Below are positions 2,354 through 56,260 of a stretch of DNA of 64,000 nt, in pieces. The notes beneath the pieces were generated by a model, which searched no databases, was not told the origin of the DNA, and saw nothing but the letters and a program-made list of their open reading frames with translations. Source of the stretch: Patescibacteria group bacterium (GTDB lineage: Bacteria > Patescibacteriota > Patescibacteriia > JAHJFT01). The DNA lies in assembly GCA_028710985.1 (NCBI GenBank), contig JAQTTB010000001.1, forward strand, positions 295,397 to 359,396. Reading direction: 5' to 3'. The translations under genes were made by a program, and so were the position numbers. The number at the start of each line of letters is the position of its first letter. Positions within the stretch are counted from its first letter, which is position 1.

Positions 2354-2605
2354 TTACGGCAGGTCCAATCCGCCTTTTGAAAACGGATTGCACCTCATCA
2401 CCCGCCAGAGTCCCTTGAACCCGCCCCGGATGATGCCGTATTTTTTTATTGACTCATAAGTATAGTCCGAGCAGGTCGGCTGAAACCGGCAATATCCGCC
2501 CGGAAACATGAAACGAAAAATCCCATGGTCAAAACTCAATGTTTTCTGATACCCCCGGATGGCGAAAAGCGCCGCCTGGCGCGCCATGGCCGTAAAAAAA
2601 CTCAT
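2354..2605 (-). CDS. yidD: membrane protein insertion efficiency factor YidD
   Basis: 83 aa. The conserved YidD core is present (FMFPGGYCRFQPTCSDYTYESIKKYGIIRGGFKGLWRVMRCNPFSKGG). It lies immediately downstream of rnpA with a 4 nt overlap, the classic rpmH-rnpA-yidD order. Confidence 0.85.
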   Translation of the reverse strand: MSFFTAMARQAALFAIRGYQKTLSFDHGIFRFMFPGGYCRFQPTCSDYTYESIKKYGIIRGGFKGLWRVMRCNPFSKGGLDLP

Positions 2606-2940
2606 ACAATCCCCTGCTTTTTAAAAAGTCCGAGCAGTTCTTTTTCCATTTCCCCGAACTTAAGCTGTAAAATCGCGGGTTTGGTCATGACCATGACGTC
2701 ATAACCGGCAGCGATTGCCCCAAGGTGCTTGCGCACGATCTCCCGGAGCTGGCGCCGCACCCGGTTTCTCTTAACCGCGCTTTTTGATACCTTAAGCCCG
2801 GCCACAAAAGCAAAACGCGATACTCCAAGCTGATTTTTCGCTAATCTTACGGAAATATTTGGAGTATACGCGCTTCTTCCCCTCTTCAAAACCGCCTCAA
2901 TGTCCAGCTTTTTTCGTAGTCGGTATTGGGCCGGAAGCAT
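2602..2940 (-). CDS. rnpA: ribonuclease P protein component
   Basis: 112 aa basic protein (RLRKKLDIEAVLKRGRSAYTPNISVRLAKNQLGVSRFAFV...KVSKSAVKRNRVRRQLREIVR). It follows rpmH directly. Confidence 0.85.
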   Translation of the reverse strand: MLPAQYRLRKKLDIEAVLKRGRSAYTPNISVRLAKNQLGVSRFAFVAGLKVSKSAVKRNRVRRQLREIVRKHLGAIAAGYDVMVMTKPAILQLKFGEMEKELLGLFKKQGIV

Positions 2941-2944
2941 ATGA

Positions 2945-3082
2945 TTAATGGCTCAATTTCTTTCGGCCTCGCGCCCGTCGCCGGGCTAGCACCTTGCGGC
3001 CGCCTTTGGTTTTCATGCGGCTGCGGAAGCCTTCTTTTTTGCGGATATAGCTCTTTTTCGGCTGAAATGTTCTCTTTGGCAT
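2945..3082 (-). CDS. rpmH: 50S ribosomal protein L34
   Basis: Translated by hand from the minus strand: [45 protein letters not shown], 45 aa. This matches the L34 consensus (MKRTFQP..RKR...GFR.RM.T..GR.VL..RR.KGR..L). It is missing from the six-frame track because it is short. Confidence 0.85.
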
Positions 3083-3426
3083 ATATTTTATTAGTGGCCC
3101 CGATGGCTATCGGGGCATTTATGCTTAATAAGGTCGGCGGAGCCGACACTTTGTCTAAAAAACCCGCCCAGATGCCCTGCGGCATTGCCGCAGGGACGGG
3201 TTTATGGTATTTAGCAAGCCAATCATACTATACCTTGATTATTTTTTCAAGACGCATTACACTTGGAATACGAGTAATGCACACTGTCCACAGTTTATCA
3301 ACAATTTATTAACTTTTTGGCTTATTTTAGCCAATTTTCAAATCCCCGGCTTTGTGATAATATTGGGTAGCAGCGCCCGGAAAAACGAATCGCCCCCCGG
3401 GCATAAAAAAAATAAAAAATAAACCT

Positions 3427-4803
3427 ATGAACGTCCACGAAATTTGGCAAGCCGCTCTTGGCGAACTGGAGCTTAATCTTAGCAAGGTAAATTTCCGCAC
3501 CTGGTTTAAAAATACTTTTATTGCCGGCATTGAAAACGACAAGGTGATTATTTGCGTGCCAAATACCTTTTCCAAGGCGTGGCTTGAAAAAAAATACAAT
3601 CCCGCGATTATTCAAACCCTGCGCAATGTCACCAATCATCCGGTCAAAGAAATAATCTACAAGGTTGAAATCCGGCCCCAGAACGAAGTGGTGCAGGAAT
3701 ACGCCGACGAAGCGCCGGTCGCCCCGGTCGCCACCGAACCGATCCGCCCCCAGCTTCCCCAGCGCGATCACTGGTGCGAAATTGGCTTAAATTCACGCTA
3801 TACCTTCAAAAATTTTGTGGTCGGCAAGGGCAATGAACTCGCCCATGCCGCGGCTCAGGCCGTGGCGGCCAAACCCGGAGAGGTGTACAACCCTCTTTTT
3901 ATTTATGGCGGTGCCGGACTCGGCAAAACCCACCTCTTGCAGGCCATCGGTCACGAAACCCTGACTACCGCCCCCCATCTTCGCGTACTCTATGTTACCT
4001 GTGAACGCTTTACCAATGATTTTATACAGGCCGTGCGCTCCGGTCATGCCAAAGAATTCAAAGACACTTATCGCAACGTGGATCTTCTTTTGATTGACGA
4101 TATCCAGTTCATCACCGGTAAAGAAGGCACGCAGGAAGAATTTTTTCACACCTTTAACACCCTGCACCAATTCAATAAACAAATCATCATCAGCTCCGAT
4201 CGGCCGCCCAAAGCGATTCCGTCACTTGAGCACCGGCTCCTCACCCGCTTTGAGTGGGGCATGATTGCCGATATTTCCAGCCCTGATTTCGAAACCCGCA
4301 TTGCCATTTTGCAAAACAAGTGCCACGAAAAAAACTACGACCTTGACCGCGAATTTTTAGAGCACATCGCCAATTTGATTCAAAGCAATGTCCGCGAGCT
4401 AGAAGGCGCCTTAAATAAAATCATTGCCTATCACCAGTTCAAAAGTCTGGCGCCCAGCATGGAAACCATTGAATCCGTGCTTGAAAGCTTTTCTCCCATC
4501 CACAGGCGCAAATCCATTTCCCCGCGCCAGCTCATTGAAGTGGTTGGAAATTATTTTGAGATAAAAACACCGGATATTTTAGGCAAAAGCCGCGAAAAAA
4601 AGCTGGCTTTCCCACGCCAAATTATCATGTTTTTGCTGCGTGAAGAAATGAAAGCCTCGTATCCGTCCATCGGCGACGAACTCGGCGGCCGCGACCACAC
4701 CACTGCCATGCATGCGTACGAAAAAATTTCCAATCTTTTGAAGATAGACGAGCAGCTCAAACAGGACCTTGAATTGATCCGCGAAAAACTTTACGGTGTA
4801 TAA
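3427..4803 (+). CDS. dnaA: chromosomal replication initiator protein DnaA
   Basis: 458 aa. Features present: Walker A GGAGLGKTHLLQA, Walker B LLLIDDIQF, sensor SSDRPP, and the C-terminal DnaA-box-binding HTH (ELGGRDHTTAMHAYEKI). It sits directly before dnaN. Confidence 0.95.
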   Translation: MNVHEIWQAALGELELNLSKVNFRTWFKNTFIAGIENDKVIICVPNTFSKAWLEKKYNPAIIQTLRNVTNHPVKEIIYKVEIRPQNEVVQEYADEAPVAPVATEPIRPQLPQRDHWCEIGLNSRYTFKNFVVGKGNELAHAAAQAVAAKPGEVYNPLFIYGGAGLGKTHLLQAIGHETLTTAPHLRVLYVTCERFTNDFIQAVRSGHAKEFKDTYRNVDLLLIDDIQFITGKEGTQEEFFHTFNTLHQFNKQIIISSDRPPKAIPSLEHRLLTRFEWGMIADISSPDFETRIAILQNKCHEKNYDLDREFLEHIANLIQSNVRELEGALNKIIAYHQFKSLAPSMETIESVLESFSPIHRRKSISPRQLIEVVGNYFEIKTPDILGKSREKKLAFPRQIIMFLLREEMKASYPSIGDELGGRDHTTAMHAYEKISNLLKIDEQLKQDLELIREKLYGV

Positions 4804-5044
4804 GCAGTGCAAAAAACCCCACTCCGCCTGTGCTCTGCTTGCGCTCTGCCGGTGCAAAAAAAACTCGATTCTCTCTCCTGGCAATTTCCCTAAAAATCCT
4901 CCACCGCGTAACGCAAACCTTGTCCACCTTCTGACCCCCTAACTTTTTCGCCATTTCTTGCTGCGTTTCCCGGTTTTGCACCCTGTCCACCGCCCTACTA
5001 CTATTACTATATATAAATATATAAAATAACTAATAACAATAATT
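4804..5044. promoter_or_regulatory. candidate oriC / dnaN upstream region: DnaA-box-like TTGTCCACC and CTGTCCACC plus an AT-rich unwinding-element-like tract
   Basis: The dnaA-dnaN intergenic region has two TGTCCAC cores (about 4921 and 4983). A pure A/T stretch follows (TATATATAAATATATAAAATAACTAATAACAATAATT, about 5008-5044), adjacent to the dnaN start. Confidence 0.4.
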
Positions 5045-6181
5045 ATGAAACTCGTGTGCACGCAGGAAAATCTCGCGAGGGGGCTGAATATCGTAAGTCA
5101 CATTACCAGCAAAAATATTAATTTGCCGATTTTAAATAACGTACTCGTTAAAATTGAGGACAAGAGTGTCCGGCTCTCCACCACCAATCTTGAGGTGGCC
5201 ATTAATTGTACGCTTCGCGGCAAAATTGACGAGCCCGGAGAATTTACCCTGCCGTCGCGGCTTTTTAGCGACTATGTGAATCTCCTGCCGGCCGAAGCCG
5301 TGGAAATTGAAACCACGGACACGAACCTCGGCATAAAGTGCGGCAATTACGAAACCAAAATCAAAGGCCTGCCGGCCTCCGAGTTTCCGCTTATTCCGCA
5401 GGTAGTGAAAAAGAAAGTATACAGCTGTTCGGCTTCGGAATTTAAACGTGCGCTTTCCCAGGTAATTTTTGCGGTTTCGCCGAATGAGTCAAAGCCGGAA
5501 TTCGCCGGCATCTGCATGGAAATAAACCGCGAGAATGAGTCTGGACGGCTGGTCCTCGCCGCAACCGACACCTATCGCCTGGGCGAGGCATCGCTTGCCC
5601 TGGAGAAGGGTTCAGGGGCGGAAAACGCTTCCGCAATCGTGCCGGTCCGCACTATGGCCGAAGTTCTGCGCATTCTCTCTGCGTTTAAGGACGATGCCGA
5701 AGCGCCGGAAAACCTGGAAATTGCCTTTTCCGAGAGCCAGATTGTTTTTACCCTGGGGAACGCTGAGCTTATTTCGCGCGTTATCGAGGGCCAATATCCC
5801 GACTACCGTCAGATCGTGCCCGCCGATTTTAAGGTCACGGCCAAACTCTCAAGGGACGAGCTTGCAAAAGCCATCAAAACCACGAGCCTTTTCTCTAAGA
5901 CAGGGCTCTTTGATGTCACGCTTGAATTTGTACCGCCTCGGGGTATTATCATAAGGTCAATTGATTTGCAGACCGGTGAAAACAAAGTTGAACTCGCCGG
6001 CGAAGTAAGCGGCGCGGAGAATAAAATTACATTAAATTACCGCTATCTTCTGGAGGGCTTAAACGCGCTTCCGGGCAGCGAAGTGAGCTTCAGCCTGGTC
6101 GATGCCGCCAACCCCTGCCTCATCCGTTCAATTGGCAATGAAAAGGAATACTTCTACATCGTAATGCCCATAAAACAATAA
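5045..6181 (+). CDS. dnaN: DNA polymerase III beta sliding clamp
   Basis: 378 aa. N-terminus reads MKLVCTQENLARGLNIVSHI...LPILNNVLVKIEDKSVRLSTTNLEVAI, the typical three-domain clamp. It is in the canonical position after dnaA. Confidence 0.95.
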   Translation: MKLVCTQENLARGLNIVSHITSKNINLPILNNVLVKIEDKSVRLSTTNLEVAINCTLRGKIDEPGEFTLPSRLFSDYVNLLPAEAVEIETTDTNLGIKCGNYETKIKGLPASEFPLIPQVVKKKVYSCSASEFKRALSQVIFAVSPNESKPEFAGICMEINRENESGRLVLAATDTYRLGEASLALEKGSGAENASAIVPVRTMAEVLRILSAFKDDAEAPENLEIAFSESQIVFTLGNAELISRVIEGQYPDYRQIVPADFKVTAKLSRDELAKAIKTTSLFSKTGLFDVTLEFVPPRGIIIRSIDLQTGENKVELAGEVSGAENKITLNYRYLLEGLNALPGSEVSFSLVDAANPCLIRSIGNEKEYFYIVMPIKQ

Positions 6182-6269: not shown

Positions 6270-6372
6270 GTTCGGGGTGGCTGCTAAGCGCCGTTTAGAA
6301 ATGCAAAGAGTCGCCTAATGAAATTGAGAGCGCACCTGCCTGCCGGCAGGCAGGTCAGCCACCCCGAAACTT
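6270..6372. repeat. composite palindromic element: 13 bp stem (TTCGGGGTGGCTG / CAGCCACCCCGAA) enclosing REP-like palindrome CCTGCCTGCCGGCAGGCAGG
   Basis: The two 13-mers are perfect reverse complements at 6270-6282 and 6360-6372. The F1 palindrome lies in the enclosed loop. A second hairpin (ACTTTTGG..CAAAAGT) follows at 6375-6400. Confidence 0.45.
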
Positions 6373-12586: not shown

Positions 12587-14668
12587 ATGAAAGATACAAT
12601 CAACGCTAGCGTGACAAGAAGCAGGGTCTCCATATTCTGTACCCACGCGATTGAAATGCTGTGGTTATTTTTGCTCGTGGCCCTGCCGCTGTTTTATTAC
12701 CGTTCACATCAGTCGTTTAACATGCCAAAAATCCAGCTCATGTGCATTACGGTCGCGTTCATGATTGCCATCTGGATTATAAAAAGTATTGAGGGGCGCC
12801 GTTTTACTGTACGCGGCGGAGCCATGCTCTGGCTCATGACCGCTTATTTCGGCGTCATGGCCTTGTCCACGATTTTTAGTTTCTACCCTGCGGCCAGCTG
12901 GTGGGGCACTTACATCCGTTTTGAAGGCATGATTACCTATCTGTTTTATTTTTCCGCTTTTTATTTAATTTTCTGGCATCTCCGGACTTTGACGCAGGCC
13001 TATCGGTTTTTTATGGTGGCAGCGCTCGCCTCTTTGCCGGTTTCGATTTATGGCTTTTTTCAATACTATGGCTATGACTTTTTGAAATTTACAGAGGACG
13101 CGTCCGGTTTTTCGGAAATCATTTCTACTCTGGGAAATTCGCTTTATCTCTCCGATTATCTGATCATGGTACTGCCGCTCGCCTTTGCCCTGGCACTGAT
13201 CGCGAAACGCTGGTATTGCCGCGCCGCTTGGCTCGCGCTTGTATTTACGGATATATATGCCCTGGTGCTCACCGGTAAGCGTTCGGGCTTTGTTGCTCTC
13301 GTCGTCATGGCGGCAATCGGCGGATTCCTTTTGCTCTGGCGTTGGCGCCGGTCAATTGCCATCGCCGTTGGCGCGGTTGGGCTTGCCGCGGTTCTGATGC
13401 TCGCTTTCAATTTCAACACCCTATCGCAATCAGGCCTGGTCCAGAATACACCCTATCTGCGGAGAGTCGCGAGCATTTTTAATTTTGAAGACATTACAAT
13501 CAAAGAGCGTTTAGCGGTTTGGCAGCTTGCGGTCGGTTTTATTATGGATCGCCCGATCATCGGCCACGGCGTGGAAACTTTTGGTTATGTATTTAATGCC
13601 CAATATCCGCCGTCTTTTACCGCAATGCCGGAAACGATTTTTGACCGCGCCCACAATTTATTTCTGGATACCGCATTTAATGTTGGGCTGGTCGGCTTCG
13701 TTATATATCTTGCCATCTTTGGCTTGGCCATATTTCAGAGCTTGAAGATTTTTTTCAGAGAGAAAAATCAATGGTTCTCATATCTCAGCTGGGGAATCTG
13801 CGTGGCGCTCATAGGTTTTGTGGCTCACAACCAGTTTATGTTTGAAAACGCGGCAACGCGATACTTCCTTTTTTCATATTTTGCCGTGGCTGCGGCGATT
13901 CCGCTTGCGATCCAACGTGAACGTAAAATTGCTGCCGTGCCAGCTGAGCCGATCAGGCCGACGGAAAAAATTAAATTCTGGGCATCCCCGGAATACAAAA
14001 TTATTTATTACGCCATACTGATTGCGGCCCTGGCTTATTCGGTAAAATTTCACATCTTTCCAATTTCCGGAGACTTTTTCTATAATAGGGCGTTGAGTTT
14101 CGGCAGTCTGGCGGATAAAAATATGCGGGAAGTTGAATTAGAAAAAGCCATGTACTATATTCCGGATTACCGGTCCGCTGTTTATTATCAGAGAATGGGC
14201 GCTGACTGTTTTATTTATGCACAGAATATAAAAGACGAAACACGCGATGTCAGTTTTGAAAAAAGCATTAACTGGTACAATGAGGCCGCGGAAAAAGATC
14301 CCTGGCGCTACCAAATTTTTCAGGAAGAAGCGCAGGTTTTCATGATTTGGAGCAAATTTACCACCGATGAGGCCGTGGCTCAGGAGAGGCGGGATCAGGC
14401 AAACATACTATTTGAAAAATCGGTCTCTCTAAGTCCCGGTCGTCAATCAATATATTGGGACTGGGGCCGCGCTTTAATCAACATCAAACTTTGGGATAAA
14501 GGCATTATTAAATATCAGCACGCGATCGATATGGATCCTTTGATCGGCCGGTCGTATTTTGAACTGGGCAAGGCATACCGCGATACGAGCGAGCCGGAAA
14601 AAGCGCGGGAAGCGTTCGATAAAGCAATTGAGCTTGGTTACACCGGCGATGAGAGCGATCCACTCTAA
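12587..14668 (+). CDS. O-antigen ligase/Wzy_C-like polytopic membrane protein with C-terminal TPR repeats
   Basis: 693 aa. About 12 hydrophobic helices. A large loop reads ...LVLTGKRSGFVALVVMAAIGG..., consistent with Wzy_C-type proteins. The C-terminal about 200 aa is TPR-like (YYQRMGADCF...FELGKAYRDTSEPEKAREAFDKAIELGY). A paralog lies at 48870-51377. Confidence 0.55.
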   Translation: MKDTINASVTRSRVSIFCTHAIEMLWLFLLVALPLFYYRSHQSFNMPKIQLMCITVAFMIAIWIIKSIEGRRFTVRGGAMLWLMTAYFGVMALSTIFSFYPAASWWGTYIRFEGMITYLFYFSAFYLIFWHLRTLTQAYRFFMVAALASLPVSIYGFFQYYGYDFLKFTEDASGFSEIISTLGNSLYLSDYLIMVLPLAFALALIAKRWYCRAAWLALVFTDIYALVLTGKRSGFVALVVMAAIGGFLLLWRWRRSIAIAVGAVGLAAVLMLAFNFNTLSQSGLVQNTPYLRRVASIFNFEDITIKERLAVWQLAVGFIMDRPIIGHGVETFGYVFNAQYPPSFTAMPETIFDRAHNLFLDTAFNVGLVGFVIYLAIFGLAIFQSLKIFFREKNQWFSYLSWGICVALIGFVAHNQFMFENAATRYFLFSYFAVAAAIPLAIQRERKIAAVPAEPIRPTEKIKFWASPEYKIIYYAILIAALAYSVKFHIFPISGDFFYNRALSFGSLADKNMREVELEKAMYYIPDYRSAVYYQRMGADCFIYAQNIKDETRDVSFEKSINWYNEAAEKDPWRYQIFQEEAQVFMIWSKFTTDEAVAQERRDQANILFEKSVSLSPGRQSIYWDWGRALINIKLWDKGIIKYQHAIDMDPLIGRSYFELGKAYRDTSEPEKAREAFDKAIELGYTGDESDPL

Positions 14669-14670
14669 AC

Positions 14671-14760
14671 GAGAATCTAGTAGCTAGAATCTAGAATCTA
14701 GCCGTTTAAAGCAGGTTTACCCCTCAATAAAAGACTAGATTCTAGATTCTAGATTCTAAG
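14671..14760. repeat. empty hairpin of the TCTAGA-type low-complexity inverted-repeat family (left arm GAGAATCTAGTAGCTAGAATCTAGAATCTAG, 27 nt spacer, right arm AAAAGACTAGATTCTAGATTCTAGATTCTAAG)
   Basis: The arms are reverse complements. It fills the whole gap between the waaL-like stop (14668) and the holA start (14763). The same arm family flanks the four-helix-bundle gene at 23998-24342 and recurs at 27095-27290. Confidence 0.65.
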
Positions 14761-14762: not shown

Positions 14763-15704
14763 ATGATAATACTAATTCACGGTCAAGACACCTTCCGCTC
14801 ACGGCAGAAACTACGCGAGCTTATTTTGAGTTTTAAGCAAAAATTTGATACCAATGGTTTGAATTTGATTTCTTTTAAAGAGAGTTCTACCACCGACGAA
14901 CTTTTTCAGGCCGCGGCCACGGCCCCATTTCTCGCGCCCAAAAAAATGGTCATTGCCGAGAATATAAGCCAGCGGGTAAAGGACTGGGACGTCATCGCTC
15001 CGCTCTGGAAGCGTGTTCCGGATGAGACTATTCTCGTGCTTTGGGAAGAGGCGGAAGAGAAAAGTCTGAGCAAGGCCTTTGCGGGCTTGCCGAAGAAAGA
15101 TGTATTTTTTTATGAATATTCCCCACTCTCGCCGGCCGAAACGCGGCGCTGGCTCGTGGACCGCTGCCGCGAAAAAAAGATTTCCATCCGGCCGGCCGTG
15201 CTTGACCTCCTGACCGAAAAAGTCGGATTTGATCTTTGGCGGCTGGATTCCGAACTTGATAAGCTTTCGGCGCGCGCCGCAGGCAAGGAAATCACAAAAC
15301 AGCACATTGACGAGTTGGTTGACACGCGGCTTGAAGATAATATATTTCTTTTTTGCGACGCGTTGGCGCAGAAAAACACCAAGTTGGCGCTGGATTTGCT
15401 TGAGCGATTAATGCGCTCCGGGGTCAATGAGTTTGAACTCTTGGGTAAGCTCATTTGGCAGTTTAGGATATTACTCAAGATGCGTTCATATTTTGATGAT
15501 GATCCGTCGGCCAATTCGGCTCGCGCGGCTAAAGATTTGGGGCTTCACCCGTTCGTGGCGAATAAAAATAGCGCGATTGTCAAAAATTTTAAATCCGCCG
15601 AACTTACTGCTCTGTATAGAAAAGCTCTGGAATTGGAGATCAGCCTCAAGACTGGCCGCGTTGAACCGACTCTCGGGCTGGAGATGCTCGTGGCGGCGAT
15701 ATAG
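14763..15704 (+). CDS. holA: DNA polymerase III delta subunit
   Basis: 313 aa. N-terminus MIILIHGQDTFRSRQKL matches the HolA pattern (IYLLYGEE.F). Overall alpha/beta N-domain, and the length fits. Confidence 0.7.
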   Translation: MIILIHGQDTFRSRQKLRELILSFKQKFDTNGLNLISFKESSTTDELFQAAATAPFLAPKKMVIAENISQRVKDWDVIAPLWKRVPDETILVLWEEAEEKSLSKAFAGLPKKDVFFYEYSPLSPAETRRWLVDRCREKKISIRPAVLDLLTEKVGFDLWRLDSELDKLSARAAGKEITKQHIDELVDTRLEDNIFLFCDALAQKNTKLALDLLERLMRSGVNEFELLGKLIWQFRILLKMRSYFDDDPSANSARAAKDLGLHPFVANKNSAIVKNFKSAELTALYRKALELEISLKTGRVEPTLGLEMLVAAI

Positions 15705-16145
15705 CAATAGAACATCAGAGCAAAAGAACAATGGAACAAAAATATGGCGGATAAGAATGCCTACAGAGAAACTTTAAAGCAAAAGATGGACGAATATGTC
15801 CATCTTGTTTATAAAGTCACTAGAAATTTTCCGGCTGAAGAAAGATTCGGTTCAGCGTCGCAGTTGCGTCGGTCGGCTTTATCGGTAATTTTGAACTATA
15901 TTGAGGGATTCGCTCGCATAAGATTAAATGTAAAATTAAATTTTCTTGAAATCGCTTATGGCTCACTCAAAGAATCAAAATATTTGATATATTTCTCAAT
16001 GAAGGAAGGGTATATATTCAAAGAAGATTACCAGACCCTAATCGGACTTGCCGACAATATCGGGGCCATGCTCTGGTCTGAAATAGCGCAAGGCAGTAAA
16101 AAGCGAGACAAAAATTGACTTGTTCTTTGTTCTGTTGTTCTATTG
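15705..16145 (+). mobile_element. IVS-like cassette A: four-helix-bundle protein gene enclosed by imperfect low-complexity inverted repeats (left CAATAGAACATCAGAGCAAAAGAACAATGGAACAA, right CTTGTTCTTTGTTCTGTTGTTCTATTG)
   Basis: Arms at 15705-15739 and 16119-16145 are reverse-complementary (ttgttc/gaacaa motifs). They abut the start and stop codons of the enclosed ORF. Confidence 0.6.
15744..16118 (+). CDS. four-helix-bundle protein (23S rRNA intervening-sequence protein family, TIGR02436-like)
   Basis: 124 aa. Family hallmarks: ...LVYKVTRNFPAEERFGSASQLRRSALSVILNYIEGFAR...IAYGSLKESKYLIYFSMKEGYI. Three paralogs elsewhere in the window share the SQ(L/M)RR(A/S)AxSIxxNIAEG core. Confidence 0.85.
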   Translation: MADKNAYRETLKQKMDEYVHLVYKVTRNFPAEERFGSASQLRRSALSVILNYIEGFARIRLNVKLNFLEIAYGSLKESKYLIYFSMKEGYIFKEDYQTLIGLADNIGAMLWSEIAQGSKKRDKN

Positions 16146-16210
16146 TTGAAATACCGCAAGAAAACAAAAACCAGCCTAGATTATCTTGGGCCGGTTTTTT
16201 AAATATACTC

Positions 16211-23940: not shown

Positions 23941-24368
23941 AAGAATCTAGTATCTAGTATCTAGAATCTAGAAGATCAAAAACGAAAATACTTATATATG
24001 CAGACGAAATCATTTAGAGATTTGATTGTTTGGCAGAAGTCGCGCGATTTGGGGGTTGAGATATACAAGTTGACAAAGAGTATGCCCAAAGAGGAACTCT
24101 ACGGCATGGTGAGTCAGATGAGAAGGGCGGCGATCTCCATATCGTCCAATATCGCCGAAGGATATAATCGCGCGCATCCGATAGAGAAGAGGCAGTTTAT
24201 GCGCATCGCCTATGGTTCAGGATCGGAATTAGAAAGCCAGATCGAAGTCGCAAAGATTATATATCCAAAGTTAAGTTATAAGTTATCAGAAAGTTTATTA
24301 CTCGAAGTACTAAAGATCCTAAATAAATTTATCAACCGATAAAAGACTAGATTCTAGATTCTAGATTC
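23941..24368 (+). mobile_element. IVS-like cassette B: four-helix-bundle gene enclosed by TCTAGA-type inverted repeats (left AAGAATCTAGTATCTAGTATCTAGAATCTAGAAG, right AAAAGACTAGATTCTAGATTCTAGATTC)
   Basis: Arms at 23941-23974 and 24341-24368 are reverse-complementary. The right arm starts at the stop codon. Same arm family as 14671-14760 and 27095-27290. Confidence 0.65.
23998..24342 (+). CDS. four-helix-bundle protein (23S rRNA intervening-sequence protein family)
   Basis: 114 aa. MQTKSFRDLIVWQKSRDLGVEIYKLTKSMPKEELYGMVSQMRRAAISISSNIAEGYNR...IAYGSGSELESQIEVAK: the canonical family sequence pattern. Confidence 0.85.
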   Translation: MQTKSFRDLIVWQKSRDLGVEIYKLTKSMPKEELYGMVSQMRRAAISISSNIAEGYNRAHPIEKRQFMRIAYGSGSELESQIEVAKIIYPKLSYKLSESLLLEVLKILNKFINR

Positions 24369-24373: not shown

Positions 24374-27112
24374 ATGAAATACGCACGCACAACAATAATA
24401 CTGCTTGCCATAATGGCAGGGCTCGCAATTGCCACGGCCGTCCACGCCGCGCGATTTGAATTATCGCCTGCGAGTGCGGCCCTGAATCAGGGTTGCGACT
24501 CGGTGGTGAACATCGTGCTTAGTACCGAAGGAAGCGAATCCGATGCCGCTAATGTCATTATCCAATACAATCCGGCTGAAGTGGAAATTACGGACACAAA
24601 CCCGGCCATTCCGGGAATCCAGATTGGCCAGGGCAATGCCTATGATATATACGCCGATAATATTGTCGATCCGGCAATCGGCCAGATTCGGTTGACCGGA
24701 TTTTCCATCGGCCATGCCTACAACAGCGGCTTATTGTACGGAGTCTTTGGTTCGATTCCATTCAAGAGCCGGCCCGGGATTGCGGCAGCCACTTTCACAA
24801 TTTTTTATGAGGCTGGGAGCACGCTTGATTCAAATATTGCTGAATACATCACAAGCGACGATCTTCTCACCGGCGTGCGAAACGGATCTTATACATTCGC
24901 GGTTGGCGAGTGCGTGAGCGATGTAACACCGCCCTGGGTTACGAATCCTCAGCCCGCGCCTGGTTCAACCGGCGTGCCGCTTTCAAGCAACACTACTTTT
25001 CACATTCTGGATAACATGTCCGGAGTTGACCTCTCGTCGCTCCGCATCAATGTCCAGGGAATTGAATATAATTATGACGGCGTCAACCGTTTCAGCTATT
25101 CTGGCACGGCGCTCGATTACGCAATCACGATTGATCCGATTGCCGATTTTCCGGACGGCGTTATGGTGCGCGTCGAAGTAAACGGCCGCGATCTTGACGG
25201 CAACACCATGTCACCTTATCGCTGGTATTTTAACGAACCGCCGATTCCGCCGCCGGTCCCGCCAACCTGTACCGAGCTCGGTTGCCCGGAACCTGATGAA
25301 TGTGCTCCGCCGGAAGAACTTCCGGCGTGTGAAGAACCCGAGGTTTTGCCCATCCCCGAACCCACTGTGCCGCCCGGAGAGCAGATAAGTATTGATGCCA
25401 TTGAATTCTTGGCTGCGAACCGCACGGTTCGTTTGTATCCCGACGGAGTCAATGCCGTGCGCGTACTTGTGGGTACTTCGTACAGCGTGCAAATCAGCCA
25501 TGAAAATCTCGCCAAAGAAGTGGGCTCAATCTGGTGGTATTCGGGTGCGTCAACATATCAACTCGCGCAAAGTGCGGCGGGTGATTTCTGGACCGACATC
25601 GGCGCCTATGCTTCAATCACCGCGGTTCCTTCACACATCATTATAAATTACGCAGATGGCACCATTGATGTGCGCGACTTTACGGTGCGGACCGTGCCGC
25701 GAGGCAATGTGTACGAACAAATCGGCGAAAATGAATCCATGGTTTCCGGCGCCAGGGTGACGATTTATCAAGCCGGCACCACGCCTGGAATCTGGAATGC
25801 CGGAACCTACAATCAGATAAATCCGGTATGGACTTCAAATGACGGCCAGTTCGGCTTTTATGTGCCGCAGGGCTATTACTACATTGAGGTGCAAAAGCCG
25901 GGATATGATCTGGCGCGGTCGCTCTCGTTCTATGCGCGCAGTTCCATTGTTAATAATCCCATGCTTCTTACGAAAATTCCCGGACCGGTTACTCCGATTG
26001 ACGCGATTACACAGACCGCAGTACTGGTCGGCGAAACCGTGGCCGATATGGCCGCGCGGACACAGTCCGCGATTGTCGCCGCCATTCCGGCAACTCAGGA
26101 ACAGATTGATTCAGCCGTCGGTATTATCGCGCCCGCCGCCATCGGCCTCGCATTCCTGAATCTCGGTACCGCGATTTCATTCGCTAATCTGATTCCGTTC
26201 TTGTGGGGGCTCTTTACCCAACCGCTGCTCTTGCTCGGCCGGGGCAAAAGAAAAAGATGGGGAGTGGTTTACAATTCACTCACCAAGATACCGATTGATC
26301 TCGCTATCGTCCGCCTGATTGAAGCCCGGACCGGAAAAATAATTCGCACTCGCATCACCGACCGTGAGGGCCGATATTTCTTCATGGCCAAACTGGGAAT
26401 TTACCGCATTGAAGTAAAAAAGCCGGGTTTTCTGTTTCCCACGATAAATTTACGCGATGCCAAGGAGGATTTTCAGTATCTGGATGTTTATCACGGTGAG
26501 ATTATTCAGGTTCGCGAAGAAAGTCGCCAAATTACGGCTAATATTCCGCTTGATCCGATCGCCGGCGCCGAGAAATCAAAATGGCTTATTGTTCGTTCAT
26601 ACTTAAAGAAGGCGCAACAGTACGCGGCTTCACTTTCGGTTATGGTGGCCATCGGACTCTTGGTCGTCAACCCCTCATGGTTTATGCTCGGGTATCTTAT
26701 TCTGCAAATCGCTCTTCTTCTGCTTTTCCGTCGCCTGGCTCAGCCTGCCAAGCCAAAGGGCTGGGGCATAGTTTACGACAAAAAAACCCGCCGGCCGATT
26801 GCCAATGCCATTGTGCGTATCTTTGACCTTGAATTCAGCCGTCTTTTGGAAACCCAGGTCACGGACGGACAGGGCAAGTATTCATTCCTGGTCGGCAGTA
26901 ATCGGTATTTCACCACCTACGAAAAGCCCGGTTTCGTGGTAAAGAAATTAGCGCCAATTGATTATTCAAAAATGAAAGAAAGAACCATGGTGGCTTATGA
27001 TGTGGGGCTGGAGCGGGCCAAGGACATTGCGGCATCAGAGCAGAAAAATGCGGCCAGTGGGTCAGTGCAAGTCGGAGGCGGAGAAGAGTGGAAGAACGAG
27101 AATAGAATCTAG
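24374..27112 (+). CDS. membrane-anchored surface protein: N-terminal cohesin-like domain, Ig-like domain, Pro-rich linker, three CarbopepD_reg-like domains, internal TM helices
   Basis: 912 aa. Signal peptide. Residues about 26-160 (FELSPASAALNQGCDSVVNIVLSTEG...ANVIIQYNPAEVEITD...) resemble the cohesin beta-sandwich pattern. Linker reads EPPIPPPVPPTCTELGCPEPDECAPPEELPACEEPEVLPIPEP. Three G.Y...V.KPG(Y/F) modules (YYYIEVQKPGYDL; GIYRIEVKKPGFLF; YFTTYEKPGFVV) are preceded by TD.(D/E)G.(Y/F) motifs. Two or three hydrophobic helices lie around residues 560-600 and 740-790. Confidence 0.5.
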   Translation: MKYARTTIILLAIMAGLAIATAVHAARFELSPASAALNQGCDSVVNIVLSTEGSESDAANVIIQYNPAEVEITDTNPAIPGIQIGQGNAYDIYADNIVDPAIGQIRLTGFSIGHAYNSGLLYGVFGSIPFKSRPGIAAATFTIFYEAGSTLDSNIAEYITSDDLLTGVRNGSYTFAVGECVSDVTPPWVTNPQPAPGSTGVPLSSNTTFHILDNMSGVDLSSLRINVQGIEYNYDGVNRFSYSGTALDYAITIDPIADFPDGVMVRVEVNGRDLDGNTMSPYRWYFNEPPIPPPVPPTCTELGCPEPDECAPPEELPACEEPEVLPIPEPTVPPGEQISIDAIEFLAANRTVRLYPDGVNAVRVLVGTSYSVQISHENLAKEVGSIWWYSGASTYQLAQSAAGDFWTDIGAYASITAVPSHIIINYADGTIDVRDFTVRTVPRGNVYEQIGENESMVSGARVTIYQAGTTPGIWNAGTYNQINPVWTSNDGQFGFYVPQGYYYIEVQKPGYDLARSLSFYARSSIVNNPMLLTKIPGPVTPIDAITQTAVLVGETVADMAARTQSAIVAAIPATQEQIDSAVGIIAPAAIGLAFLNLGTAISFANLIPFLWGLFTQPLLLLGRGKRKRWGVVYNSLTKIPIDLAIVRLIEARTGKIIRTRITDREGRYFFMAKLGIYRIEVKKPGFLFPTINLRDAKEDFQYLDVYHGEIIQVREESRQITANIPLDPIAGAEKSKWLIVRSYLKKAQQYAASLSVMVAIGLLVVNPSWFMLGYLILQIALLLLFRRLAQPAKPKGWGIVYDKKTRRPIANAIVRIFDLEFSRLLETQVTDGQGKYSFLVGSNRYFTTYEKPGFVVKKLAPIDYSKMKERTMVAYDVGLERAKDIAASEQKNAASGSVQVGGGEEWKNENRI

Positions 27113-27290
27113 AATCTAGTATCTAGAATCTAGGCGTTAAAAGTTTATCAATCTATAAAAAGACTAGATTCTAGATTCTAGCTTCTAGATTCTCCGTAAA
27201 GACTAGATTCTAGATTCTAGCTCCTAGATTCTCCGAAAAGACTAGATTCTAGCTTCTAGATTCTAGATTCTATCTTTTCCGCTCTCGGAC
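27095..27290. repeat. TCTAGA-type inverted-repeat locus: one left arm (overlapping the last codons of the upstream gene) and three tandem right arms (AAAGACTAGATTCTAGATTCTAG(C/T)T(C/T)CTAGATTCTCC)
   Basis: The left arm AGAATCTAGAATCTAGTATCTAGAATCTAGG starts inside codons NENRI-stop. The spacer CGTTAAAAGTTTATCAATCTAT resembles the spacer at 14702-14728. Three near-identical right-arm copies lie at about 27158-27195, 27199-27236 and 27240-27285. Confidence 0.65.
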
Positions 27291-27339: not shown

Positions 27340-30300
27340 ATGAACTCAATCGGAGGAAGACAATTCAAGCGGACTTTAAAGAAAACCATTGTTTTGCAAA
27401 TGGCAGTTTTGATGTTGCTTGTCTGGTTCGGTGCGTTCGTGACTCCGGAAAAAGCCCATGCTGCGATTAATAAATACATCAACTATCAGGGAAAACTGCT
27501 TGATTCTTCCAAAATCCCGGTGGCGGACGGAACCTATGGCATTGAATTCAAGATTTACGATGCCGTCACTGCCGGCAGTGAACTCTGGTCAGATTCCTTT
27601 GATGTTGCTGTTGATGACGGTCTATTCAGCATTTTGCTGGGTTCAAGCGGCACGCTTGACTTGAATTTTGAAGATGAAGCCGGCTACTGGCTGGGTGTTA
27701 ATGTTGAGGCTGATGGCGAAATGACGCCGCGCAAAGAAATTGGCGCCGCGGCTTATGCATTCAACTCGGATTTATTGGACGGATTGCATGCCACGACTAC
27801 CGGCGCAATTTCTTCGGCCGTGGTCGCGCTGACTGCCAACGGCAATCTCACCATTACCGGCGATCCCCAAGGCGGCGCGGTTACACAGGGTTCCCTATAT
27901 ATTAATCCAGCCGCTCCGGCAGCCGATGAAACGCTTTTGGGTATCGCAAATAACGGCTCGCAGCGGCTGCTTTTGGATGCGGAAGGCGATCTGACGGTCG
28001 CCGGATATGTCTCAACCACACAATTATTTATTGATAGTATTGATGTTCAAACCAGCGCTTCCCGGACAACCTCAGGCGCGTATATCATTGGTGTTGCCGA
28101 CAACTTCTCGTGGTCGGCCTCAACCAATGTCCAGTTCGTGCTTGAGGATTTGGATCTCGCAATCACTAACGCCTCATCTTCAGCCAACCTTTGGACCGAT
28201 GCAGGTACATATATATATAACACCCCGGCCGGTGACATTAACCGATTCTATGACAACGGCGATATTAAGTTTGACCAAGTGAGTGATACATTATTTATTG
28301 ATCAAAGCGCGCACAGTATTGGTATCTTTACAACTTCTCCTACGGCCGCGGCACTTGAGGTTGATGCAAATTCACTTGGAACAACTACGGCAAACAAAAT
28401 AATTTTAGCAAACACAACCGCCGCCGGCGCTGGTGCACAACAGGTTTCGCCTGCATTAAATTTTAGAAGTCAAGGTTGGTCACTTGCAGAAAGTGCATCT
28501 CAAGAAGTGGATTGGCAAGTGTATGTCCTACCTCATCAATACGCTGGTCGACAGGCGACCTCAGATTTATATTTTCAGTATAAATTGGGCGGTGAATCAA
28601 GTTATAGAACTGGTATTATTTTTACCGCTCCTTTTGATAGCGGATATGCATCTTTAGCGGCATATAATGGCACTTTTTATAATAGCGTAAGTGTAAGCGC
28701 AGTTCTAAGTGTTAGCACCAATGCTTATCTGGCATATACATCTACTGCCTACAGGGTCGGCATCGGCACCAACAGCCCCGGCTACAAGCTGCATGTTGTT
28801 GGCACGAGCGGTTTTGATGGCAGCCTTGCTGTTTCATCAACCAATCTCATTTTTGACGCCGCCGGTACAGCCTTCGCAAGTTCAACCGACCGAACTCACT
28901 CCGGCGCTTACTACTTGGGTGTTGCCGACAATTTCTCCTGGTCGGCTTCAACCAATGTCCAGTTCGTGCTGGAAGATTTGGACCTTGCGATCACCAACGC
29001 CTCATCATCGGCCAATCTTTGGAAAGCAAACGCTTCATATATATATCCGGCCTCAACCACGGCCAATGTTTTCCCTTCATCAAACAATGCGCAAAGCCTA
29101 GGAGCGTTTGGTAGTGCCTGGAAAGATATTTATGCTTCGGGCACGTCATATTTAACCAACGTAACGGCGGCAAATTATGTTAATGTTTCCGACGCGACAG
29201 TCGGCTATAAAATCGGCGGGAACATAATTTTAAGAAATCCCTATACCCGCAATATACTTCTTGGTCAAAGCGCGGGAGCGGCTCTTAATTCAGATGGCAC
29301 GGACAATATGTTTCTCGGTTATTTGGCCGGAGCTGCAGCCACTTCTTCAGATTACAATACTTTCATCGGCTCTTACGCCGGCTATGCCAACACTGCCGGT
29401 ACTGCCAATGCCTTCATTGGCTATGTCGCCGGCTATGCCAACACCACCGGCGCTAATAATATTTTCATCGGCTCTTACGCCGGCTATACCAACACCATCG
29501 GCGCAAATAACTCCTTCATCGGTTATGCCGCTGGCCGCTACAGCACTACCGGCTCCTACAACTCCTTTATTGGTAATGCCGCCGGCTATTCAAACACCAC
29601 CGGTGCTGCCAATGCTTTCATCGGCTATGGTGCTGGCTACTATAACACCACCGGCGCGAATAACACCGCGATCGGTTCTTATGTTTTATACGCCAACACC
29701 ACAGGCGCGAATAATAGCGCGATCGGTTTTTACGCCTTAAGCGCCAACACCACTGGCGCGAATAACAGCGTGATTGGTTATTTTGCTTCATTTTACAACT
29801 CATCGGCCACGAGCACAGTGGCAATCGGTTATCAGGCGGCTCGAGGAACCGCGGCATACAGCAACCAAAACGGCGTGTACATTGGTTACAATGCCGGGTA
29901 TGCGGCTCAAACAGGGTCGGATAACAATATAATGATTGGTTATCAAGCCGGAGACAGTATAACAACGGGATCTGGCAATTTGCTTATTGGCTATGATGTT
30001 GATAATGCCACAAGCACGGCTTCAACCAATTACATAAATATCGGAAATACCATCCAGGGCTGGATCGGTGGAAAAATCTATCCATACAATCATGGAACAC
30101 AGGATTTGGGCGCATACGGTTATGCCTGGAAAGACATCTGGGCTTCAGGCACGGCCTTCCTCGCGAACGCGAATCTCTCCGGCAATGCTACTGTCCTGGG
30201 CTATGTCTCAACCACCCAAGTTTATATAGATAGTATAGATATAGAAGGCCAGGGTACGGGCAATACCACGGCCGGCGCCTACAAAATCGGCACTTATGAC

Positions 30301-33300
30301 GAATTTGACTGGTCCGCAAGCACCAATGTGCAGGATGTGCTTGATGACCTGGACGCCACTCTGACCACGGTTTCTACCTCGGCCATGCTTTGGACCGACG
30401 CGGGTACATATATATATAATACCCCGGCCGGAGACATTAACCGGTTTTATGATACCGGCAGTGTCAACTTTGATGCCACCAACACCACGCTTTATGTTGA
30501 CGCCATGAACAATCGCGTTGGTGTCGGCACGAATAACGCTTTAAGCGTTTTCCATATTCTTGGCAGCTACCCGCAGTTATTAATTAATGACAGTTCGGTT
30601 CCGAGCTTCCTGTCTTTGAGGGGTGATGCCAATATCTTCTTCAACAATGCCTCCAACTACAGGATCGCTAGCCAGGCTTATGCAAACCGCGGCACGGCCA
30701 CGGGCGATACAGTGAGATTTACCATTCAGGGCTCCAATGGATATGTGGGTATTGCCACTTCAACTCCGCAAGTGATGCTCCATGTGTACGACGGGAGTTT
30801 CCGTCAGCAAGATACAACCGGCGGCAAGACCGGGCAATTGACCATCTCCACCCTCTCTTCTGGTACGCTAATTCAGGAAACCAATAACGGTCGTATTACG
30901 TATAAGGCATATGCTCATACTTGGCAGACTCATGCGGGAACAGAAATTTTCCGAACCAGTGACGGGTTGACCGCAGTTATATTTAATGGAAATATTTTTT
31001 CTTACGGTAATCTTTACACCTCATCTTCAAAATTATTTGTTGGAAGTGACACAACTCTCGCCGAATCAACCGACCGCCTTGATTCCGGCGCCTACAATGT
31101 GGGCGTGGCCGACAACTTCTCGTGGTCGGCTTCAACCAATGTCCAGTTTGTGCTGGAAGATTTGGACCTCGCCATCACCAACGCCTCATCATCGGCCAAT
31201 ATCTGGAAAGCAAACGCTTCATATATATATCCGGCCTCAACCACGGCCAATGTTTTCCCCTCATCAAACAATGCGCAAAGCCTGGGTGCGTTTGGCAGCG
31301 CCTGGAAAGATATTTACGCTTCAGGCACAGCGTATTTAACCAACGTAACGGCGGCAAATTATGTTAATGTTTCCGACGCGACCGTCGGATATAAAATCGG
31401 CGGGAACATTATTTTAAGAAATCCCTATACTCACAATACACTTATCGGGCAAAACGCAGGGGCAAACATCAATTCAGATGGCACGGATAATACTTTTATT
31501 GGTTATTTCGCTGGGTACACAGCCACTTCAACAGATTATAACGTTTTTATCGGTCCTTACGCCGGCCAGAACAATGCTGCCGGCGCTAATAATTCCTTTA
31601 TCGGCTATGCCGCTGGCAAAGACAACACTACTGGCAGTGGCAACTCCTTCATCGGTTATGTCGCCGGCTATGCCAATACCATTGGCAATTATAACTCCTC
31701 CATCGGCTATGCCGCCGGCTATGCCAACACCACCGGCTCTTACAACTCCTTTATCGGCAATGCCGCCGGCCAAACCAACACCACCGGCGCGAATAACACC
31801 GGGGTTGGTTATTCCGCTTTATACTCCAACACCACCGGCGTGAATAACACCGCGGTTGGTTATTCCGCTCTATTCTATAACTCATCGGCCACAAGCACGG
31901 TGACAATTGGTTATCAGGCGGCGCGAGGAACCGCGGCATATAGCAACCAAAATGGCGTGTATATTGGTTACAGAGCGGGGTATGTTGTTCAAACAGGGTC
32001 GGATAACAATATAATGATCGGTTTTCAAGCCGGAAACAGTATCACAACCGGCGCTAATAATATATTGATTGGTTATGATGTTGATACACCGCTCGCAACC
32101 ACATCTAACTACTTAAACATTGGCAATCGGATTTATGGAAGTCTAACGGATGGAATTTTAAATATCCAGCCAAACGGTGATTCCAACAATTATTCCCGAT
32201 TTGCGACGGTTGATGCACAACCCATACTATATTTCGTTTCATCAACCATGACTAACTATTCCGGCTTCCGCTTGAATTCCTCTACCGGCGAAATGGAGTA
32301 TCGCGATGAGGATTCAGCGACGTATACACCATTTGACACAATCGCGGCCGGAGCGGGTATCTGGTCAACCGGCGCTTCATATATATATCCGGCCTCCACC
32401 ACGGCCAATGCTTTCCCCTCATCAAACAATGCGCAAAGCCTGGGTGCGTTTAGCAGCGCCTGGAAAGATTTTTATGCCTCCGGAACTTCATATCTCACCG
32501 GCGTATTGAATTCTGACGGAGCTCTTGGCGCGCCAAGCTACTCTTTCGCCGCAGATTCTGATACAGGTATGTTTTGGGCGGGTACGGGCAATGTTCGTTT
32601 CTCTTCAAACGGAGCGAGCATAGTGACCATGGGCAATTCTGAAGTGGATGTCGGCGGTTCAATTCTGCCAACCGCCAATAATACCCGAGATTTAGGCGCT
32701 TTCTCTTATGCCTGGCGCAATATCTATGCCTCCGGCACGGCATTCTTAACCGGTATTCAAAATTCAGTCGGAGCCGTCGGCACGCCAAGCTACAGTTTTG
32801 CCGGAGATACAAACACAGGAATCTACAGTCCATTATCCGATGCGGTTGCGATCGCTGTAAATGGTGCTCAACGATTCCAGGTAACCGCAACTGGCGCACA
32901 AGTAACCGGAACTGTCTATTCGGACGCAAATAATTCACGGGACATCGGCTACTTTGGAAATGCCTGGAATGATATCTTCGCGTCCGGTACAGCCTTCCTC
33001 GCGGATGCAAATCTCTCCGGCAATGCCACGGTCCTGGGTTATGTCTCTACCACGCAGTTATTTATTGATAGTATTGATGTTCAAACCAGCGCTTCCCGGA
33101 CAACCTCGGGCGCTTATGTCATTGGTGTGGCCGACAATTTCTCCTGGTCCGCCTCAACCAATGTCCAGTTCGTGCTGGAAGATTTGGACCTTGCGATCAC
33201 CAACGCCTCCTCATCCGCCAATATCTGGAAACTCGGGGCTTCATATATATATCCGGCATCCACCACGGCCGATATCCTGGCCGGCGCCGCAACTCCGGAC

Positions 33301-48257: not shown

Positions 48258-48340
48258 TTATAAACGCAATATTCCATGTCGTCAAATTATGTGTTATAAT
48301 TGCCTTATCAAGGGGAAAGGTTATCCCCAACGTCCGAGAA

Positions 48341-48796
48341 GCTCCAAATTCCAAACACCAAGCTCCAAATAAATTTCAATGGGCGAAATCCCAAAATCCA
48401 AACCCTATAATCTGGAAGAAAGAACCTTTGAATTTTCAAAGCAAGTAGCTGTTTTTTGCAAGAATTTACCCAAAACTCAAAGCAATTATGAGTATACCAG
48501 ACAGGTTATTCGATCTTCCGGATCGGTTGGTGCGAATTACATTGAAGCCAACGAAGCGTTAAGCAGCAAAGATTTCTTGATGAGAATTAAGATTTGCCGC
48601 AAGGAGGCAAAGGAAACCGCATATTGGATTGGCCTAATTATTGCGACAAACGACGCAGACCTCGAAAACGCCAAGCGACTATATGAAGAAGCCATTGAAT
48701 TAAAAAAGATATTTTCATCAATCGCAGAGAAAACAAAAAAAGTTTGAAATTTGGATTTTGGCATTTATTTGTAATTTGGTGCTTGTTATTTGGAGT
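48341..48796 (+). mobile_element. IVS-like cassette C: four-helix-bundle gene enclosed by CCAAA/TTTGG-type inverted repeats
   Basis: Left arm GCTCCAAATTCCAAACACCAAGCTCCAAATAAATTTCA (48341-48378) continues into the first codons (ATGGGCGAAATCCCAAAATCCAAA). Right arm AAATTTGGATTTTGGCATTTATTTGTAATTTGGTGCTTGTTATTTGGAG (48748-48796) is its imperfect reverse complement. Confidence 0.55.
48379..48747 (+). CDS. four-helix-bundle protein (23S rRNA intervening-sequence protein family)
   Basis: 122 aa. ...FEFSKQVAVFCKNLPKTQSNYEYTRQVIRSSGSVGANYIEANEALSSKDFLMRIKICRKEAKETAYWIGLI: the family pattern. Confidence 0.8.
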   Translation: MGEIPKSKPYNLEERTFEFSKQVAVFCKNLPKTQSNYEYTRQVIRSSGSVGANYIEANEALSSKDFLMRIKICRKEAKETAYWIGLIIATNDADLENAKRLYEEAIELKKIFSSIAEKTKKV

Positions 48797-48869
48797 TTAG
48801 AAAGTCAGTTCTTTAAAATAATAAAAAAAGCTCTATTAACAGAGCTTGCTAATTCATAAGAGAAATAAT

Positions 48870-54719: not shown

Positions 54720-55057
54720 ACTGTTATAAAAATTCTACATCAAATCCGAGTGTTTTGCGAGTTTTTTGCCAAAATGCGTCAAAAATCCGTGGGTCCGGGT
54801 GTCGGGAATAGTCTTCAACATTTGAAATTTGACGCTTATTTTAGCTAAATTTATAATATAATTAGGAATTGGCCAATTCCGAACAAGCGTTCTTTGACAA
54901 GAATTTCACGAGCTTTTGTCCGGCCGGCTCTTGACGGCCGGACATTTCCCCGCTAAAATAAGGTTACTTTATTAATTCTTAAGTCCATAGGGTCCAAAAG
55001 ACTCTTTTCGCGGTTCTCCCGATTGCGATCGGGATCGGGATACGCGGAACAAACACT

Positions 55058-56220: not shown

Positions 56221-56250
56221 AAAACCCCGCTTCTAACGAGGCGGGGTTTT
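56221..56250 (+). terminator. intrinsic terminator AAAACCCCGCTTCTAACGAGGCGGGGTTTT after rpsR
   Basis: 8 bp GC-rich stem with a T4 run, 10 nt after the rpsR stop. Confidence 0.6.
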
Positions 56251-56260
56251 GCTGTTATCT

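Follow-up and report, generated by a model that had tools for sequence, protein, structure and literature searches.

Hairpins and four-helix-bundle genes in the window

The window, that is, the whole 64-kb stretch of patescibacterial DNA analysed here, contains a set of long inverted repeats built from tandem heptamers. At 14671-14760, the whole gap between a Wzy_C/TPR O-antigen-ligase-like gene (waaL-like, 12587-14668, with its stop at 14668) and holA (14763-15704; TIGR01128, 2e-63) is taken up by such a hairpin with no ORF inside, as the first-pass annotation had described. Its left arm, (AGAATCT)x4.3 at 14672-14701, begins 3 nt past the stop codon of the Wzy_C-like gene, and its right arm, (CTAGATT)x3.4 at 14735-14758, terminates 5 nt ahead of the holA ATG; the arms, spacers and cassettes given here and below are all on the forward strand unless stated otherwise. 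An inverted-repeat scan found 31 nt with 87% complementarity. The spacer (14702-14734) has ATAAAAGA at its end, in common with the 3′ end of the gene in the filled cassette described below. The spacer length of 27 nt reported earlier was not reproduced, as the spacer measures 33 nt between the heptamer tracts and 19 nt between the extended arms.

A second empty hairpin is found at the junction between a gene for a 912-aa protein (24374-27112) and a giant ORF. The earlier description of 27095-27290 as one left arm followed by three tandem right arms, with the end of the 912-aa gene (27112) inside the left arm, is borne out. The left arm lies at 27103-27133 and is entered by the 912-aa ORF, which ends at a TAG at 27110-27112. 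It is followed by a spacer (27134-27163) and by three right arms (27164-27272, individually at about 27164-27193, 27203-27232 and 27242-27272). A tandem-repeat scan describes the triple arm as a 39-nt unit repeated 2.9 times at 27158-27271 with 92% identity, the unit being AAAGAC + (TAGATTC)4 + TCCG. The single left arm is able to pair with any of the three right arms, which would have arisen by tandem duplication of a unit made from AAAGAC, the arm and CCG. The last 3-5 codons of the 912-aa gene are thus encoded by the left arm of the element downstream. The giant ORF (27340-43770) encodes 5,476 aa with several arrays of 51-nt (17-aa) tandem repeats, and no Pfam match was found in its first 2,000 residues.

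The filled version of this hairpin precedes the 912-aa gene. It consists of a left arm (23942-23973, from the tandem- and inverted-repeat scans), a four-helix-bundle (4HB) gene (23998-24342, 114 aa) and a right arm (24347-24368). The stop codon of the gene is located just before the right arm, within CGATAAAAGAC, and the arm ends 5 nt ahead of the ATG of the 912-aa gene. The encoded protein matches TIGR02436 (9.4e-31) and PF05635 (9.8e-32) and is thus a member of the “23S rRNA IVS protein” family, confirming the earlier notion that TCTAGA-type arms spanning 23942-24368 flank a 4HB gene. The closest solved structure (2.5e-16) is that of the 4HB protein XCC0516 (PDB 2GSC).

Arms of the (AGAATCT)n/(AGATTCT)n type occur at exactly three loci in the window, one filled and two empty, and constitute one family. 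With at most one mismatch, the 12-mer TCTAGAATCTAG has 27 matches in the 64 kb, all at these three loci, compared to 0.11 expected from shuffles. The arms fold into stems of 18-30 bp with a z of about -6; the folding energies are -34.2 and -38.1 kcal/mol for the empty hairpins (z = -5.8 and -5.6) and -70.2 kcal/mol for the triple-arm locus of the second one (z = -6.0). More generally, the terminal inverted repeats of these elements make a long stem around the insert, with 29-63 pairs and, for most elements, z values from -4 to -9.

There are four 4HB genes in the window, and each paralogue has its own pair of tandem-unit inverted arms. The second cassette (15705-16145), located between holA and the S20 gene, has arms CAATAGAACATCAGAGCAAAAGAACAA and TTGTTCTTTGTTCTGTTGTTCTATTG, with units CAATAGAAC.../...GTTCTATTG, around a 4HB gene at 15744-16118. 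The third (48339-48798) has (CTCCAAA)-type arms around a gene at 48379-48747, and the fourth (57281-57771), between a class II aaRS gene and efp, has (AGTCAAA)/(TTTGACT) arms around a gene at 57345-57713. The loops of these three cassettes and of the one at 23998-24342 all hold a PF05635/TIGR02436 ORF, while the two empty hairpins are ORF-less. A third empty hairpin, with no strand assigned, is found at 63580-63675 and belongs to a separate arm family with (AATGTCA)/(TGACATT) heptamers. The class II aaRS gene (56249-57337) ends inside the left arm of the fourth cassette, which encodes its last ~17 codons.

The period of seven is a feature of these elements. A lag-autocorrelation scan gave 15 period-7 tracts in the window, compared to 0-7 tracts for each other period between 1 and 12, and all except one are arms of 4HB cassettes or of empty hairpins. 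The exception, (AATCTCA)x2.7 at 60221-60265, is a lone short tract located between two minus-strand genes, for an HTH protein and FtsK. The arms have about 3.4-5.7 heptamer units each and, with at least three tandem 7-nt units in an intergenic region, have the form of a heptameric simple-sequence repeat.

An Rfam scan of the window returned only two tRNAs, with no rRNA and no family matching the hairpins. None of the four 4HB proteins has a match in PADLOC, and a role as defence-system proteins was rejected on this basis. A different kind of inverted repeat, 33 nt long and 91% complementary, is found at 55007-55039 and 55425-55457, with 385 nt in between. It joins the 5′ UTR of rpsF (S6, 55058-55546) to the codons of its C-terminal tail, has GATCGGG units in its arms, and might act as a long-range structure in the mRNA or as a site of autoregulation. 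The window probably spans the chromosomal replication origin region, since rnpA (minus strand), dnaA and dnaN are clustered at 2602-6181; the cumulative GC skew has its minimum near 6-8 kb.

Gene remnants in the spacers and the same junctions in relatives

All five TCTAGA-type right arms are preceded by ATAAAAGAC ((T)AAAAGAC), which in the filled copy contains the TAA stop codon of the gene. The first-pass annotation had proposed aligning the spacers to the UTRs of 4HB genes in search of remnants; here they were aligned with the end of the filled gene. The 27.1 kb spacer contains the codons AAG TTT ATC AAT CTA TAA and reads KFINL*, compared to KFINR* in the gene at 23998-24342. An end-anchored alignment with the final 20 nt of the filled gene gives 17/20 matches, a score that was reached by 1 of 500 shuffles; in fixed register upstream of the common sequence, 14/24 positions match (p = 7e-4). 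The 14.7 kb spacer is more decayed, and beyond the common 9 nt its match to the gene end is weak (10/24, p about 0.05). By these alignments, the 3′ end of a 4HB gene, stop codon included, survives in the spacers of the empty hairpins. This is the arrangement of a MITE-like derivative, in which the ends of the full-length element are kept and the interior is deleted: the arms are of the same type, and the spacer keeps the 3′ end of the gene.

The similarity previously seen between the two empty spacers is real but modest, consisting of a 16-point local alignment that was reached by 18 of 500 shuffles. Both begin with CGTT(T)AAAG, and both hairpins may come from one deletion event, for which these similar starts are a weak argument.

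The same junctions were compared in relatives with holA proteins that are 53-61% identical and in which the gene order polA-waaL-holA-(S20)-rmuC is retained. The holA identities give the tree (L127,(window,(L124,L125))). The waaL|holA and holA|S20 junctions were sampled in L124-L128, and the fn3|912-aa and 912-aa|giant gene junctions in L150 and L151; L124 and L150 are the same contig. The waaL|holA junction, which holds the empty TCTAGA hairpin in the window, is vacant with a 3-nt gap in L124 and L125/L126 and is occupied in L127/L128 by a 128-aa 4HB gene with CAAGAAA-type arms. The holA|S20 junction is filled in the window (15744-16118) and has no gene in L124 (83 nt), L125/L126 (55 nt) or L127/L128 (70 nt). 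At fn3|912-aa, the window has an intact 4HB gene, L150 has a 4HB pseudogene with an in-frame stop and (AGAATCA)n/(TGATTCT)n arms, and L151 has (GCAAAAA)5 together with a solo right arm homologous to that of L150. Finally, the 912-aa|giant gene junction holds the triple-arm hairpin in the window, 71 nt without heptamers in L150, and a lone (AAGCTAA)5 tract in L151. The two L151 tracts (3391-3500 and 6282-6323, respectively) are thus found at junctions that have cassettes or hairpins in the window. Across this comparison, the same intergenic junctions are vacant, filled, pseudogenised or reduced to an arm in different relatives.

The first-pass annotation had left it at gain or loss of the gene. 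Loss is the better-supported direction, since the spacers keep the last codons and stop of the 4HB gene and the relatives show intact, pseudogene, solo-arm and vacant states. Nevertheless, gain into a pre-existing hairpin finds a possible example in the fn3|912-aa junction, where the arm units of the two genomes are near-identical, yet the identity between the 4HB genes of the window and L150 is only 32%, against 64% for the flanking protein. The two cassettes were therefore rejected as simple orthologues, and the one-base change from (AGAATCT) to (AGAATCA), accompanied by a corresponding change in the other arm, is suggestive but does not make a clean compensatory series. Between L127 and the window at 15744, the 4HB genes are 55% identical, which is about as much as holA, yet they are found on opposite sides of it. 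By these comparisons, the junctions were occupied more than once or exchanged cassettes, and the series is not purely one of vertical decay. No target-site duplication was visible between occupied and vacant junctions in these relatives, which are only 53-61% identical, and no transposase or recombinase was found among the window ORFs scanned. A scan of metagenome contigs with holA returned only two weak relatives.

In L127 (3925-4000), arm-like heptamers encode the C-terminal tail of the 4HB protein (RIKKSRNQSK) and are able to pair locally with the right arm, making an “empty-type” hairpin within a filled element.

Four-helix-bundle cassettes in other genomes

Proteins 67-84% identical to that of 23998 are found in five other genomes (L130, L140, L159, L160 and L162). 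All five genes have (nnTAGAA)n/(TTCTAnn)n arms, with L162 mixing TCTAGAA and ATAGAAA units. Counting the window, this subfamily occupies six different gene contexts, the other five being dockerin protein|unknown, unknown|Fic, unknown|PrgI, VirB4-like|AAA ATPase and pilin|WD40. The right arms stop 0-5 nt ahead of the next ATG. By this comparison, the gene and its arm type travel as a unit, as homologous cassettes are located at unrelated junctions between genes in other genomes. Cassettes have the same orientation as the upstream gene in 14 of the 16 scored, and a Shine-Dalgarno sequence is absent before every 4HB gene looked at.

The PF05635 family is large, with more than 7,700 clusters at E below 1e-10. 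When 4HB genes were picked without regard to any motif, flanking tandem repeats, mostly of period 7 but also 8 or 11, were found within 150 nt in 16 of 16 and then in 19 of 19. These 19 genes come from CPR, cyanobacteria, Gemmatirosa and an Azospirillum 23S IVS. The claim that empty and filled hairpins belong to one family with a link to the 4HB gene thus stands, and the link is general. The flanking repeats are mostly inverted, and pairing is not universal, as in two of the genes (L154 and L157) the repeats on either side are direct. The number of units per flanking tract varies from 3 to 17. The upstream flank is more purine-rich than the downstream one in 17 of 19 genes (p = 5e-4, uncorrected for shared ancestry).

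Matches to the 4HB family on plasmids or chromids are mostly cyanobacterial and are located inside operons, such as at cas6|cas4 and cmr2|cmr3. The 23S rRNA IVP is listed among CRISPR-linked domains, and the insertion of 4HB cassettes within operons accounts for the family being “associated” with cas operons in cyanobacteria. On a Pseudanabaena plasmid (L154, cas6|4HB|cas4), the gene is flanked in direct orientation by (AAGCTAA)x17 on its upstream and (AAGCCAA)x10 on its downstream side, and on a Picosynechococcus plasmid (L156), it sits between cmr2 and cmr3; in both, it is located inside a CRISPR-Cas operon.

The motif CTAGAATCTAGAATCTAG occurs in at least 120 stretches in very diverse genomes, where by our estimate about 17 would be expected by chance in 596 Gb. 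A 4HB gene is next to only 4 of these 120 (TCTAGAA)n loci. Most are without a partner arm; only about 8 have a strict partner at the 99th percentile of the null, and ~30 exceed a looser score of 12. A scan of viral contigs gave one locus. Proteins that occur on 18-40 contigs (P0104 and P0195) were considered as identical copies at multiple sites and rejected, since they represent one locus that recurs across many samples. A Spirochaetaceae MAG (L061, 840-1400), from a different phylum, has a 4HB cassette whose left arm, AGAATCTAGTAGCTAGAATCTAGAAT, is almost identical to window positions 14672-14697 and whose protein is ~41% identical to that of 23998. This likeness could be due to convergence or horizontal transfer.

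Related elements, rival readings and function

IVS elements with a four-helix-bundle ORF have been known since the early 1990s. Those with an S23p or 23S_rRNA_IVP ORF interrupt the 23S (and 16S) rRNA of Leptospira, Coxiella, Brucella and Xanthomonas. The window cassettes share with them a PF05635/TIGR02436 protein in the loop, an insert of ~400-450 nt whose terminal inverted repeats make a ~20-30 bp stem, a 5′ arm with tandem heptamers, and the lack of a good Shine-Dalgarno sequence before the ORF. Decay of the ORF is common to both, as in Coxiella and here in L150, and the sampled Azospirillum 23S IVS (L158) has the same heptamer arms. In contrast to rRNA IVSs, the window elements are not inserted in a 23S or 16S rRNA helix, but lie between protein-coding genes of operons (waaL|holA, fn3|912-aa and aaRS|efp), and they include derivatives that lack the gene but retain a remnant of its end, as well as a triplicated arm. 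The 23S IVS of Coxiella has a 4HB ORF, a 28-bp terminal stem with mapped RNase III cuts, and GACAGAT tandem heptamers of variable copy number in the 5′ arm (PMC4990558). Insertions in CPR rRNA also carry 23S_rRNA_IVP ORFs (PMC11270868).

The reading that best fits the empty hairpins is that of decayed copies of an IVS-like 4HB cassette located in mRNA operons. More specifically, those at 14671-14760 and 27095-27290 are probably gene-less relics that arose by internal deletion from a heptamer-armed, promoterless 4HB-gene insert related to the IVS. What these elements display is the anatomy of the IVS outside rRNA, wedged amid housekeeping genes in the ~0.74-Mb genome of an ultra-small member of the Patescibacteria at a density of four 4HB genes in 64 kb. 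Relatives differ in the presence or absence of the elements, and intermediates of decay can be seen; the rRNA IVS is recast as one landing site of a broader class of cassettes. A further consequence is the addition of arm-encoded C-terminal tails to host proteins.

The hairpins also resemble Neisseria Correia/NEMIS elements and similar MITEs, which are hairpin-forming miniature elements that are processed at the RNA level. The likeness includes a short (~90-200 nt) intergenic element, inverted ends that fold in the mRNA, non-autonomous derivation from a longer element and breaks in assemblies. In contrast, the window elements have no visible target-site duplication, and their arms are built of tandem heptamers and not of unique terminal inverted repeats. 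To our knowledge, there is no transposase-bearing parent of the window hairpins; the parent carries a 4HB gene instead.

Over-represented intergenic heptamers were described by Rehm et al. in 2015, including GGGAATC in Xanthomonas, GGGGAYT in Nostoc and the cyanobacterial STRR, sometimes as inverted pairs and with lengths that vary between relatives (PMC4692102). In their supplementary table, the start of XCC0516 is overlapped by GGGAATC tract #15, which is six nt away from bccP (PMC4692102). The 4HB/IVS protein family is not mentioned in the paper or its supplements (PMC4692102), whereas the window tracts are tied to a specific gene family and its gene-less relics. A literature search of incomplete coverage returned no paper that connects 4HB genes with the excess of heptameric repeats or with heptamer arms elsewhere than in rRNA, and none on gene-less relics.

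In an alternative reading, the heptamer hairpin or tract is the primary element, arising by slippage or spreading in trans like a MITE or REP, with the 4HB genes as cargo and the empty hairpins as unoccupied sites. Heptamer tracts do far outnumber 4HB genes, as seen from the 4/120 (TCTAGAA)n loci with an adjacent gene and from the 186 GGGAATC tracts in Xanthomonas campestris (PMC4692102). Lone tracts at the orthologous L151 junctions, the near-identical arm units around divergent genes at fn3|912-aa, and the spacer start common to both window empties, as if they had spread in empty form, all fit such an origin. It does not account for spacers that hold the 4HB stop and last codons in the right register, nor for the stepwise decay to a pseudogene in L150 and then a solo arm in L151; moreover, the arm type follows the protein subfamily in six genomes, which is what joint travel of gene and arms would produce. 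We consider this origin possible but unlikely. The heptamer arms might also be RNA or DNA binding arrays for a pentameric 4HB protein, serving as an operator, packaging or mobility signal, in which case the empty hairpins would still function as targets for 4HB proteins encoded at other sites in the genome. Every 4HB paralogue comes with a heptamer unit of its own, the arm type co-varies with the protein subfamily, and the repeats flank the gene even in L154 and L157, where they are unable to pair. XCC0516 has been described as a ring pentamer (PMC4990558), which may be compared with the 3.4-5.7 units of the window arms, while the range of unit numbers, from 3 to 17, counts against this reading. 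The family is also homologous to the DGR accessory protein Avd, with a shared four-helix-bundle fold (PMC10053308), and the 15744 protein has a PF22296 bAvd match at 4.5e-9. However, no DGR reverse transcriptase was found among the window ORFs scanned and no template/variable repeat pair is found nearby, and the Avd model NF033474 scores 31 bits, below its cut-off of 80. A binding array is thus a doubtful explanation for the arms.

The terminator role that had been offered as another option fares worse. The hairpins are stable, intergenic stem-loops, as intrinsic terminators or attenuators between genes would be, but there is no U-tract after the stems, which are AT-rich rather than G+C-rich. 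The consensus scan calls none of them, although it does call a canonical terminator at 16174-16191. Besides, the hairpins lie within 3-5 nt of the start codons of genes in the same direction; one of these is holA, which has the right arm 5 nt upstream and itself abuts the preceding gene in relatives. Termination is therefore disfavoured and very improbable. Coincidence, in the sense of a simple-sequence repeat with no biological unity, had been named as what would undo the relationship. It is true that (TCTAGAA)n tracts are common in many phyla and that most have no adjacent 4HB gene. In the window, coincidence is refuted by the confinement of 27 matches to three loci where 0.11 were expected, by the paired arms with z about -6, by a heptamer periodicity restricted to 4HB cassettes and hairpins, and by spacers homologous to the end of a 4HB gene; the chance that it holds is negligible.

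A role as RNA processing sites, which had also been suggested, is plausible by likeness to the RNase III excision of rRNA IVSs (PMC4990558). The cassette would be transcribed by read-through from the host operon, and its arms would pair into a dsRNA stem of 20-30 bp that, as experiments have demonstrated for rRNA IVSs, could be cut by RNase III. Cleavage would release the insert and separate the flanking cistrons. Copies would persist at sites where one arm adjoins the upstream stop codon and the other the downstream start codon, as terminating ribosomes and/or cleavage would there keep the downstream gene expressible; ribosomes that stop at the left arm or within it may contribute to opening the stem for the next start codon. 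Once the gene is deleted, the hairpin would stay as a neutral or mildly useful processing site. No rnc gene is present within the 64-kb window. Selection at the RNA level through G·U pairs was considered and rejected: sense and antisense arm duplexes are equally stable, with the sense strand more stable in 10/19, and nothing favours RNA- over DNA-level selection of pairing.

The broader connection between 4HB genes and heptamers is a more interesting lead than the relics themselves. The flanking heptamers, found in all 19 sampled genes, at XCC0516 and in Coxiella, join the huge PF05635 family to the excess of heptameric repeats in bacteria. A tentative proposal is that the PF05635 protein and its tandem heptamers make up one widespread module, in which a ring protein would recognise, use or generate its own arms, as RNA or DNA, to spread the cassette or control its processing. 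The bacterial excess of intergenic heptamers, as in Xanthomonas, Nostoc and many others, might then largely be the footprint of this module in the form of gene-less hairpins and solo arms.

The TCTAGA hairpins break short-read assemblies, as seen in a Logan contig of 12,460 nt from the same organism (SRR22315509_274350, L121) that ends inside both TCTAGA left arms, at 14673 and 27132. Many 4HB homologues are found on contigs of about 1 kb.
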